The notes under the pieces are model-generated. The model ran no database searches. It saw nothing but the letters and a program-made list of their open reading frames with translations, and was not told where the DNA came from. The position numbers and the translations under genes were made by a program. A stretch of 56,239 bases of DNA from Candidatus Thorarchaeota archaeon (GTDB lineage Archaea > Asgardarchaeota > Thorarchaeia > Thorarchaeales > Thorarchaeaceae): NCBI GenBank assembly GCA_030612365.1, contig JAUWOA010000003.1, forward strand, positions 1 through 56,239, given 5' to 3'. Shown one piece after another: positions 2,860-56,239 of this stretch; position 1 is the stretch's first letter, and every line of letters begins with the position of its first letter.

Positions 2860-3825
2860 TTACGAAGTTGAGATTCCTAATTTCTCAACCATTTCTTTGT
2901 AGCGATTCCTTACGGTAACTTCAGTGACTCGTGCAGTACGAGCAATCTCCAATTGTGTACGACGCGAACCTGTGAGGATGCTTGCAACATAGATCGCAGC
3001 AGCAGCCATCCCTTTCGGGTCCTTACCAATTGTGAGCCTCTGTTCGCGAGCCTGTTCAAGGATGTCAATCGCCTTCTTCTTGGCTGCACCAGGAAGATTG
3101 AGCTCAGTGCCAAACCTATGGACGAACTCAGCTGGTTTACTGAATGGCACCTTGAGGTTAAGGTATCGCAGGATAAGGCGTACGCACAGACTTAGCTCCT
3201 TGCGAGTGATGTGTATCTGATCGCATACTTCCTCCAAGGGTCTCGGGACCGTATGGATTCTGCAAGCCAGATAAAGTGAGGCTGCAATCATTCCGAGGAT
3301 TGTACGACCTCGGGTCAATCGCTTCCGCAGAGCTTTTCTGTAAAGTACAGCGGCGGTCTCTCGAATTGAGTAGGGGATACTCAGCTGAGAGCTTATCCGA
3401 TGGAGTTCCGTCATTGCAACCGCAAGATTTCGTTTGTCGGAGGAGTGAACCTTAGTACGGATTTGCCACTTGCGCAGCCTGTGAATCTGCGCTCTACGCG
3501 TTGAAGTCAGTTTCCGTCCGGATGCGTCAACATTCTGACGACCGATTATGGTCGTAAGACCCTGATCGAACTTACTCCAATCAGTTGGGCCACCCACGCG
3601 CTGACGACTGTTTTGTTCATCAGCAGTGAATGCGCGCCACTCAGGTCCTGTGTCAATCGAACGATCAGAAAGAACGAGTCCGCAGCTGGAACAGATGATT
3701 TCACCACGAGCTTTGTCAATATAGATTCTATCAGAACTGCAGGAGGTACAAATTTTGTTGGCCGTACTAATGTTATGCTCACGAGATTTCCTAGTCTTCT
3801 GCTGTTTACTGGCCAGTCGAATCAT
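2860..3825 (-). CDS. tfb: Transcription initiation factor IIB
   Basis: Zn ribbon CTSC...CSSCG, B-reader IDTGPEWRAF and two cyclin repeats ending RVTEVTVRNRYKE. Start moved to ATG 3825 because the longer ORF's N-terminus looks spurious. Confidence 0.97.
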   Translation of the reverse strand: MIRLASKQQKTRKSREHNISTANKICTSCSSDRIYIDKARGEIICSSCGLVLSDRSIDTGPEWRAFTADEQNSRQRVGGPTDWSKFDQGLTTIIGRQNVDASGRKLTSTRRAQIHRLRKWQIRTKVHSSDKRNLAVAMTELHRISSQLSIPYSIRETAAVLYRKALRKRLTRGRTILGMIAASLYLACRIHTVPRPLEEVCDQIHITRKELSLCVRLILRYLNLKVPFSKPAEFVHRFGTELNLPGAAKKKAIDILEQAREQRLTIGKDPKGMAAAAIYVASILTGSRRTQLEIARTARVTEVTVRNRYKEMVEKLGISTS

Positions 3826-34909: not shown

Positions 34910-35464
34910 CAAACCCCTCTTTTCTAATTGGCAAACAAGCATTCAAACGACTGCCACTGTTCAGTGTGGATGCAATCATAAAAAGATAGCACTCTGAATG
35001 CTTGAGTCAATGAGGGTGTGTAACAGCTGCAGAAAACCTGTACAAAGCTAGACATCTCTTAGACGAATAGCGAATCGAAGACCCTTTTTTGTAGGTGTTA
35101 ATATACTCCAGAGAGGGACCTGTACATGTTGTGTCAATCTAGGACGAAAACCAAGTCCAAGGATGACTCTACCGTCAGTTGGCCGGGACGTAAAATGCCC
35201 GTGGAGAAGACGTAAGACTTGTCGCAAATCCAGTAGGATCTGCAGAGCAGACCTCGATGAAGCAGGAACCGAACATCAGTTCAGGACCTTGATGTCTAGG
35301 ATTGTCTAGGTTTCGGGTAACGGCAATACCTGCGTAATATCACCAGTAGCCAATACTGAAATTTGCTTGTGCGGAATTATCTTTTAAGGACAGACCGCAA
35401 CGAGTCCTCTGTAGCAAGTATTCTGGCTAAATGGTAACTTAGCGAAGCGACGGGAAGTGCTTGA

Positions 35465-36160
35465 TTGCTGAAACTCACATACTTCGGCCATACGACATTC
35501 GTCCTGGAGTCCAAGGACATCACACTCCTGCTGAACCCAGGGATTTGGAATGGCGAACCCGTTGTACCTGAAGACATTGACGTGAGAATCATTGTGGCGA
35601 CAAACCGTGACGATGACTCTGTAGGAAATGCCGCTGAAATTGCAGCCAATGCCAAGGCTTGGTTCCTAGGAAACGAGGAAACAGTTGAGAAGGTCAAGTC
35701 TCAGGGCGGAAAATCTTGGTTGCTTCATACACTCAAGGCTGAAACAACCTATGAGACCCCTGGCCTAAAGATTAGTGCCTACTCCCTTCAGAAGAAGGAC
35801 TCCACGTCTGGTGAGAGGTACGAGAACCTTGGACTCTATATCGAGATGGGCGGCATGAAGATCGGCTATCTTGGTGATAGTGTAGTGCAAGGTCCATTCG
35901 GTGAATTCGAGATGGATGTTCTCATTGCTCCCATAGGGGGCGGAGAGGTGTTCGAGGTAAAAGACGCGGTCAGTCTATGCCTAGACGCCAAACCCAGGAT
36001 TGGCATCCCTGTAAGGTGGACTTCATTAGATCAACCATCGAATTTCGCGAAGTATGTATCCCAATTCGGACAGGGAGTTATACCCGTAGTCATGGAGCAT
36101 GATCAAGTCCTAGAGATTCATTGGGCTGCAGGCAACGAGTTTAGACATGCATTATCCTAA
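35465..36160 (+). CDS. Metallo-beta-lactamase-fold protein (UPF0173-like) with degenerate metal site
   Basis: KLTYFGHTTF and IGYLGDS fit the fold. THxHxDH is replaced by TNRDDDS and the final IPxH by IPVR. Confidence 0.8.
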   Translation: MLKLTYFGHTTFVLESKDITLLLNPGIWNGEPVVPEDIDVRIIVATNRDDDSVGNAAEIAANAKAWFLGNEETVEKVKSQGGKSWLLHTLKAETTYETPGLKISAYSLQKKDSTSGERYENLGLYIEMGGMKIGYLGDSVVQGPFGEFEMDVLIAPIGGGEVFEVKDAVSLCLDAKPRIGIPVRWTSLDQPSNFAKYVSQFGQGVIPVVMEHDQVLEIHWAAGNEFRHALS

Positions 36161-45928: not shown

Positions 45929-46006
45929 TGGCGGGACCGCCCAGATTCGAACTGGGGATAACCAACTCCGCAAGCTGGTGCCTTATCCATGCTAGACTAC
46001 GGCCCC
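45929..46006 (-). tRNA. tRNA-Arg(GCG), CCA encoded
   Basis: Acceptor GGGGCCG/CGGTCCC, anticodon arm CCAGC-TTGCGGA-GTTGG, T arm CCCAG-TTCGAAT-CTGGG, ends GCCA. Confidence 0.97.
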
Positions 46007-46406: not shown

Positions 46407-46484
46407 TGGCGGGACCGCCCGGATTCGAACCGGGGATGACCAACTCCGGAGGCTGGTGCCTTATCCATGCTAGACTACGGCCCC
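46407..46484 (-). tRNA. tRNA-Arg(CCG), CCA encoded
   Basis: Same cloverleaf; anticodon arm CCAGC-CTCCGGA-GTTGG, T arm CCCGG-TTCGAAT-CCGGG. Confidence 0.97.
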
Positions 46485-55770: not shown

Positions 55771-55998
55771 ATGGGAAAAGGCAAAGCCGGGAAGGTCAAG
55801 GCCAGTCATATTCTGGTGGACAAGCACAGCAAGGCTGTCGAGATAATACGCAAGATTGCTGAAGGTGAGGACTTCGCGAAGATGGCACGGGGGCATAGCA
55901 GCTGCCCATCAAGAAAGAAAGGCGGAGATCTCGGATTCTTTGGCAAGGGTCAGATGGTAAGTGAGTTTGAAAAGGCAACCTTCACCCTTAGTGTGGGG
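55771..55998 (+). pseudogene. ppiC: Parvulin (PpiC) peptidyl-prolyl isomerase truncated at its C-terminus
   Basis: [20 protein letters not shown] and [22 protein letters not shown]. The expected final V-K-T-x-F-G-Y-H-I-I strands are absent in all three frames after 55998. Confidence 0.8.
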
Positions 55999-56239
55999 TT
56001 TCAACAGTGGAAGCATTTAATCCCACTCAATACCATACATTGGCAGGCGAACCATCATTAAATTAGCTAATTGGGCATGAAAAAACAGAATTGATTATAA
56101 AACAGCCTATCGTCTATTTCGTTCTGGTAAATTCCCAAGACCCACTGAACAGTAATCAACAGTGGAGCTTTTATACTCAAATGTGGACAAAAAGGTGTCG
56201 CCGCCAGTTAGACGGAGACTCTAAACGCCTGTGGAGAGG
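55997..56239 (+). mobile_element. Non-autonomous, internally deleted IS607-family element (tnpA 5' remnant joined to tnpB 3' remnant), running off the window
   Basis: 56057-56152 reads IKLANWA*KNRIDYKTAYRLFRSGKFPRPTEQ (IS607 TnpA MerR-like HTH). 56197-56238 reads VAAS*TETLNACGE (typical TnpB tail). The junction with ppiC lies at a GG run. Confidence 0.75.

Follow-up and report, generated by a model that had tools for sequence, protein, structure and literature searches.

The window (the whole stretch of 56,239 nucleotides that was analysed, contig C56 of a Thorarchaeota genome) carries near its end ppiC, a parvulin gene with a broken reading frame. The frame is recognisable as parvulin up to ...FTLSVG, and after GTGGGG (55993-55998) the sequence is unrelated; past the break the frame adds 20 unrelated codons before it stops at 56061. 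This breakpoint was the starting point of the original prediction, and both its position and the change of frame were verified by direct reading. The full gene comprises 96 codons and is split after codon 76 (GGG, 55996-55998) and before codon 77, the inserted sequence beginning at 55999 with TTTCAACAGTGGAAGC... The missing 20 codons, which were expected to resume downstream after a GG, were found on another contig (C150:141-203), directly behind the terminal GG of the element. The sequence there reads GCAATGACCAGAGACCCTGTGAAGACCAAATTCGGTTATCACATAATAAAACGAACTGCATAG and encodes AMTRDPVKTKFGYHIIKRTA*. The joined ppiC protein of 96 amino acids is matched as a whole-protein domain by Pfam Rotamase_3 (PF13616, 7.6e-23) and Rotamase (PF00639, 1.3e-21), and it is 91-96% identical across all 96 residues to the uninterrupted genes of the five same-genus genomes having the region. 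No other parvulin and no intact ppiC were found in the assembly (188 contigs, 88% complete), just the two ppiC halves. The last 20 residues missing from the interrupted open reading frame form the C-terminal strand with the conserved FGYH histidine, and the host strain appears to be without a working parvulin.

The contig stops 241 bp into the element. The first 38 bases of C150 repeat the end of the window, and 102 more follow (C150:39-140) up to ...GTTTCGGGCAACGG; the element thus has a total length of 343 bp (241 bp on C56 plus 102 bp on C150). The link between the two contigs is this 38-nt overlap, which is common to a further contig, C108, as well; C150 was picked as the continuation because it alone completes ppiC. 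The joined flanks are identical base for base to the empty-site DNA of a same-genus genome, G003 (CTTAGTGTGGGGGCAATGAC / GTGTGGGGGCAATG). At the DNA level an empty ppiC site also exists in G001 and G006, each with one base different, and the empty-site sequence in the relatives is GTGTGGG(G/A)GCAATG. No target-site duplication was found at the ppiC insertion when the joined flanks were compared with the empty site in G003. Since the joined flanks represent an intact same-genus ppiC without duplication, the 343 bp are an insert at GG. The insertion into a parvulin gene at GG, as originally proposed, thus finds its counterpart in three same-genus genomes with an uninterrupted site, of which one (G003) equals the joined flanks.

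Anatomy of the element and its parent type

Table 1 Features of the interrupted ppiC gene, of the inserted element and of a second miniature element in the window
Feature	Position	Strand	Evidence
ppiC 5' part (codons 1-76)	55771..55998	+	ORF list
Target motif GGGG, holding the GG crossover dinucleotide; presumed transposon-adjacent motif (TAM), consensus 5'-RGGG	55995..55998	+	Left flanks at about 34 junctions
Left end, non-coding; terminal motif TTTCAACAGTGG and A/T-rich box ATTTAAT before the former tnpA start	55999..56056	+	Homology of copies starts exactly here
Decayed IS607 serine-recombinase TnpA N-terminus, 33 codons	56057..56155	+	tblastn with G012 TnpA residues 1-43
Left-end 11-mer TCAACAGTGGA, recurring inside the element	56156..56166	+	Direct reading; former tnpA codons 35-38
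A/T box TTTTATAC	56169-56176	+	-
Decayed tnpB 3' end overlapping the start of an omega-RNA-like right-end module	56179..56239	+	Alignment to G012 tnpB and the C69 tnpB remnant
Second miniature element, family C, 307 bp, intergenic	35017..35323	+	blastn, alignment, sequence reading

Four further copies share the start of homology at 55999 (C154:640 and C78:26647 in this genome, C65 and C109 in G004). With a slash marking the element boundary, the left ends of an autonomous element in the relative G012 and of the tnpA elements on C145 and C84 are of the same type, GGG/T..CAA(A)CAG. The A/T-rich box of the left end may have served as a promoter.

In the tnpA remnant ATT replaces ATG at 56057, and the frame reads IKLANWA*KNRIDYKTAYRLFRSGKFPRPTEQ* with a TGA at 56078 and a TAA at 56153. 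Residues 1-43 of the G012 TnpA match 56057-56185 with 58% identity over 43 residues (tblastn, E=5e-11; E=1.2e-11 in a repeat search), the weak similarity extending to about 56185. The tnpB remnant consists of a leftover of the last zinc-finger CxxC, AAATGTGGAC, followed by VAAS*TETLNACGE; this frame (GTCGCCGCCAGT TAG ACG...) starts at 56197 and runs to the contig end at 56239, which cuts it. On the full copy on C154 residues 364-402 of the G012 TnpB are matched with E=6e-6 (tblastn). Compared with the parent, the tnpB tail carries a further deletion of 37 nt. Altogether the element retains about 33-43 tnpA codons and about 20 tnpB codons, all of them dead. The stop-masked remnant peptides gave no Pfam or NCBIfam match; because they are too short for these models, homology was taken from tblastn with the intact relative. 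The decayed TnpA start with its ATT and its TGA and TAA stops, and the TnpB tail behind it, thus both hold as they had been read from the letters at the outset, coordinates included.

The 11-mer TCAACAGTGGA, which had been noticed at 56001 and again at 56156, does occur on direct reading at 56001-56011 and 56156-56166. The chance of such a recurrence within 343 bp is about 0.014 by a back-of-envelope estimate, and the internal 11-mer is kept in all copies of the same family (family A, see below) in three genomes, including shorter variants in G001. The motif CAACAGTGGA is present at the left end, in the former tnpA codons 35-38 and, inverted, at the far boundary of the C145 and C84 tnpA elements; it could be a TnpA binding sub-site.

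With the 343-bp sequence as query, a locus was found in G012, a genome of a different genus of the same family, in which the tnpA-head and right-end parts lie 1.8 kb apart. This locus is an intact element of 1,859 bp with tnpA and tnpB, its left flank and end reading GGG/TTAACAACAGTAG... and its right end ...GTTTCGGGCAACGG. TnpA (190 aa, starting with MKLSDWARKHGIDYKTAYRLYRSGNLPRPTEQLATG...) reaches 186 bits on NF033518 (IS607 family transposase; cut-off 110), TnpB (409 aa, ending in ...DRDLNAANNLVAASWTETQNACGEDTRL...) reaches 338 bits as RNA-guided TnpB (guided_TnpB; cut-off 100), and the Pfam domains agree for both proteins. The layout of the parent type is a left end, a serine-recombinase tnpA, tnpB and a right end with an omega RNA. 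In G012 the element was inserted after AGAGGG and splits a galactose-1-phosphate uridylyltransferase-like gene (locus L027, contig C57 of G012, 166-849 and 2861-3523, minus strand). Aligned to the G012 element, the insert in ppiC corresponds to its left end, followed by about the first 40 codons of TnpA, the final CxxC of TnpB with its tail, and the right end. The original prediction of a tnpA head fused to a tnpB tail is thereby borne out, and the search that it proposed for copies and an autonomous parent returned further copies and, as the parent type, this 1,859-bp element.

The features of the IS607 family are found here in three respects. The helix-turn-helix serine-recombinase TnpA is represented by the homology of 56057-56185 to a TnpA scoring on NF033518. 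Insertion takes place at GG without duplication, as given by the empty site in G003, and across copies the right ends read CAACGG and the left flanks GG. Furthermore, a tnpB with an overlapping omega RNA is recognised by the TnpB tail, which lies upstream of the module in the intact TnpB genes of G012, G004 and G001. The ends (TTTCAACAG... and ...GGGCAACGG) do not form inverted repeats, and the target site is not duplicated; the strict definition of a MITE does not apply, and the element is miniature and non-autonomous in the loose sense only. We consider it very probable that the 343 bp are what internal deletion has left of an IS607-family insertion sequence, a non-autonomous derivative inserted at GG in the sole parvulin gene.

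Three other explanations for the locus have to be weighed against this reading. The contig end might be chimeric, as the original prediction had itself considered, and ppiC might really be intact in the organism: the contig end falls in a repeat, the right half of the element is borrowed from another contig, and the 38-nt overlap is present on two contigs, C150 and C108. However, the junction between ppiC and the left end lies 241 bp inside C56 and, beyond GGG, has no sequence in common with the other copies, so that it is not an assembly chimera. The junction between the right end and ppiC was assembled independently on C150, the flanks give the exact orthologous sequence, and the assembly is without an intact ppiC; practically no weight is left for such an artefact. 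It is also highly improbable that the insert is spliced, as an IStron-like group I intron or an archaeal bulge-helix-bulge intron, with parvulin still being produced. IS607 elements with fused group I introns do exist (bioRxiv 10.1101/2023.11.20.567912), but no Rfam intron family was found at a permissive threshold in the scanned part of the window (34800-56239), the co-folded junctions are without a bulge-helix-bulge and their pairing varies between copies, and the autonomous parent consists of tnpA, tnpB and short ends only. An IS200/IS605-type PATE, mobilised by a Y1 tyrosine transposase, would have a described precedent in PATEs carrying omega RNAs (PMC10055086), and of the two models IS200_TnpB and IS607_TnpB the former gives the parent TnpB a slightly better score. 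Against this very unlikely origin stand the retained transposase head, a serine recombinase which scores as IS607 transposase, the serine-recombinase gene of the autonomous parent, and the ends themselves, which abut GG on the left and end in GG on the right without a subterminal hairpin-plus-TTAC-type target. The remaining serious rival to an IS607 derivative with a retained use touches the function of the element and not its identity.

Miniature families and the right-end RNA module

Bases 55999-56239 of the window recur in the genome as a full copy (C154:640-982, 98% identical) and as a left half (C78:26647-26808), and contigs C150, C108 and C164 each have a right part of the element at one end. 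About 20 sequences in the genome are related to the final 145 nt of the element, with 71-80% identity; all of them end in GTTTCGGGCAACGG, with unrelated sequence beyond. The copies fall into three families. Family A (343 bp) contains the ppiC copy, those on C154, C108 and C164 and the half copy on C78; family B (about 280 bp) has seven copies in this genome and family C (307-318 bp) six, one of them being the second element in the window. The left ends are of a single type, GGG/TTTCAACAGTGG in family A, GGG/TATGCAACAGCTGCC in family B and GGG/TATGTAACAGCTGCAG in family C. Family B comprises the left end, the upstream or promoter region and the first six tnpB codons joined to the tnpB tail, and its source is a tnpB-only element of 1,326 bp, intact in sister species. 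At least two deletion lineages hence have traceable origins, one in a parent with tnpA and tnpB and one in a tnpB-only parent. The tetranucleotide that precedes the element, compared over about 34 junctions from this genome and related ones, is AGGG or, less often, GGGG, and the element itself terminates in ACGG.

The family C element of the window is located between a gene ending at 34942 (minus strand) and a gene starting at 35465. Its left flank is GAGGG, its right end ...GGGTAACGG, and its right-end RNA module is complete. On C78 (locus L003) the truncated copy stops inside the internal motif, between TCAAC and AGTGGA. The empty site of this copy was sought without success in the relatives: in G006 a single contig carries both flanks at a distance of 226 kb, and in other relatives they are found on different contigs, so that the copy marks a site of rearrangement or broken synteny.

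For the right-end module, RNAalifold predicted six helices on 18 copies. A covariance model built from those copies (R1) finds the module in 22 of the 61 genomes of the taxonomic family, with at most 37 per genome and 21 in this one. The window contains a match at 35165-35323 with 157.8 bits, and 56194-56239 correspond to model positions 1-46, the 3' side being cut off. Among 48 distinct copies 96.7% of the cells are standard pairs and 13 pairs are changed on both sides, in an alignment that was fitted to the model, which biases towards pairing, and with copies that are mutually related. In the controls none of 500 shuffles was as high, and slid partners were paired to 27-53%. The single-sequence fold of the ppiC copy is only modestly stable (z = -1.7). 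In all copies conservation ends exactly at CAACGG, and the flanking sequences are unrelated. What the element keeps is thus a putative scaffold for an omega RNA, about 150 nt long and conserved in structure, and this conservation stops exactly at the element boundary. Kept ends and a kept omega-RNA scaffold had been suspected from the ppiC copy; every module ends in GTTTCGGGCAACGG, and the compensatory changes extend across the 48 distinct copies.

One hairpin of the module is variable: at least four versions of it differ entirely in sequence, and all of them pair. The versions (C164, C126, C12, C163 and C56b) ignore the left-end families; C164, for example, belongs to family A and has the hairpin of C126, a family C copy. 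This distribution suggests that recombination or conversion between elements may have taken place. In an Rfam search (E<=1) of 34800-56239, which includes the complete module at 35165-35323, no RNA family was matched besides two tRNAs, and RAGATH-18, a family linked to IS607 TnpB, was not among the matches. The two tRNA genes (RF00005) lie at 45932-46006 and 46410-46484 on the minus strand, with 52.5 and 51.8 bits.

Partners in trans and possible function

No intact tnpB of the element's family was found in the assembly, where only a 3' half exists (C69, residues 208-401); intact TnpB proteins of the family, 400-409 aa in length, are encoded in four genomes of the same genus (G001, G003, G004 and G006), one of them being a 404-aa protein on contig C141 of G004. 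This genome has about 20 miniature copies to one tnpB gene, and such copies are numerous across the genus. The cognate type of TnpA is absent from the whole genus of the window's genome and was found intact only in another genus (G012 and G043). The sole intact IS607 TnpA here (C145:175-828, encoded on the minus strand) reaches 190 bits on NF033518, and C84 carries a frameshifted copy. Both lie behind a left end of the form GGG/TT(T/G)CAAACAGCT and are only 38-41% identical to the cognate type, which leaves a cross-mobilisation of the element by the C145 enzyme no more than a possibility. The surrounding regions (C145:1-900 and C84:480-1345) are tnpA-only IS607-type elements of about 915 bp, bounded by GGG/TT(T/G)CAAACAG and CCACTGTTGCAGAAAG/CCC. 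Their ends resemble imperfect inverted repeats, each next to GGG, which is unusual for IS607, and the omega-RNA module is not nearby. Matches to PF07282 (TnpB zinc-ribbon) without PF01385 occur on C17, C102, C140, C182, C13, C59 and C91, in frames of 558-753 aa; they were weighed as candidate users of the guide RNAs and set aside.

The most likely mode of action of the element would be as follows. An IS607 TnpA acting in trans would excise it as a circle, which would integrate at RGGG sites through the GG core. Transcription might start from a retained tnpA or tnpB promoter or reach the element by read-through out of ppiC. The transcript would be an omega RNA whose guide would comprise the 16-20 nt to the right of the element, here GCAATGACCAGAGACC... 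of ppiC. With this RNA a TnpB supplied in trans could cut the empty allele, i.e. RGGG plus target, and recombination would restore the element, while the ACGG end of the element would shield the occupied site from cutting. The TAM of the matching TnpB is accordingly predicted to be RGGG and the self motif ACGG.

The element might instead be an inert fossil, a real IS607 deletion derivative which is now immobile and untranscribed and whose scaffold is a leftover of the deletion with no present use. This is the less likely view of its state, although a serious one. The assembly lacks an intact matching tnpB, a cognate tnpA is missing from both the assembly and the genus, and what remains of tnpA and tnpB is decayed. 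The identity along families B and C is without a clear excess conservation of the RNA part, and per-segment identity in these families did not separate a selected from an inherited RNA part; the RNA structure could be a legacy of the protein-coding parents and not a product of selection in the miniature copies. However, family-A copies within the genome are 98-100% identical at different loci, and the ppiC site is empty in all five same-genus genomes, which points to recent movement. In addition, intact TnpB with the same tail exists in sister species, and three independent deletion lineages (families A, B and C) all keep about 150 nt of the right end, where about 60 bp are enough for excision in a model system. 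Because a right end of this length exceeds the expected need of excision, it fits a retention of the guide RNA. That guide-RNA retention is what the miniature elements are selected for is put forward as a tentative proposal, somewhat short of an even chance. If it is true, three lineages would have converged on a left end, a native promoter, a complete omega-RNA scaffold and a right end. The elements would then be parasites of two enzymes of their relatives, the transposase and the RNA-guided homing nuclease. Each copy would carry a guide to its own empty site, and an Asgard archaeon would in this way possess a natural and distributed library of guide RNAs.

Comparison with known systems

IS607 families are composed of a serine-recombinase TnpA and a TnpB with an omega RNA at the right end, as for example IS607 of Helicobacter pylori. 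The element described here shares with IS607 and CboIStron the N-terminal helix-turn-helix of TnpA, a TnpB tail lying over the guide-RNA scaffold and the insertion at GG without duplication. CboIStron, an IS607-family element of Clostridium botulinum, integrates at GG with a preference for TGGG, which is also the TAM of its TnpB; its omega RNA has UCGG as its last bases, and it is the G at -3 by which self and target are told apart (bioRxiv 10.1101/2023.11.20.567912). Similarly, in the Thorarchaeota element the NGGG of the left flank is both the target and the presumed TAM, and the NCGG of the right end is predicted to allow a distinction of self by G versus C at -3. Unlike CboIStron, it encodes no functional protein, has RGGG and ACGG in place of TGGG and TCGG, contains no intron and resides in an Asgard host. 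The RGGG/ACGG pair gives a predicted TAM and a predicted self-avoidance rule for the matching TnpB.

For CboIStron, excision was found to need 40 bp of the left end and 60 bp of the right end, and a gene-less mini-IS is excised by TnpA in trans and gives TnpB a working omega RNA in trans (bioRxiv 10.1101/2023.11.20.567912). The same architecture, ends without tnpA and tnpB, is encountered here in a natural element. The CboIStron mini-IS is a laboratory construct of 581 plus 221 bp that includes the group I intron, whereas the deletion in the present elements is natural, took place at least three times and left 280-343 bp. The ppiC insertion is hence a natural counterpart of such constructs, for which the two junctions, the empty site and the parent element are all available. 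Several deletion lineages are seen here to converge on a design of ends plus guide RNA in an Asgard archaeon. In a literature search no natural IS607-derived equivalents and no description of the element's family in Asgard archaea were found, which is not proof of absence.

Protein-less PATE-like elements of IS200/IS605 often encode omega RNAs that are used in trans (Meers et al. 2023, PMC10055086). Like these, the present element is protein-less and multi-copy, keeps its ends and a guide-RNA scaffold and relies on TnpA and TnpB encoded elsewhere. However, PATEs have hairpin ends and are mobilised in single-stranded form by a Y1 tyrosine transposase; the element here has serine-recombinase-type ends and visible pieces of both genes. 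The idea of protein-less elements which keep an omega RNA is thereby extended from IS605 to IS607 and to Asgard archaea. The covariance model marks dozens of copies per Thorarchaeota genome which, without it, would be taken for pseudogenes or for peculiar gaps between genes. With the classical MITEs of Archaea and Bacteria the elements have in common that they are small, non-coding and multi-copy, arose by internal deletion of an insertion sequence and are found in genes as well as in intergenic regions. They differ from them in having neither terminal inverted repeats nor a target-site duplication and in carrying a structured RNA module.
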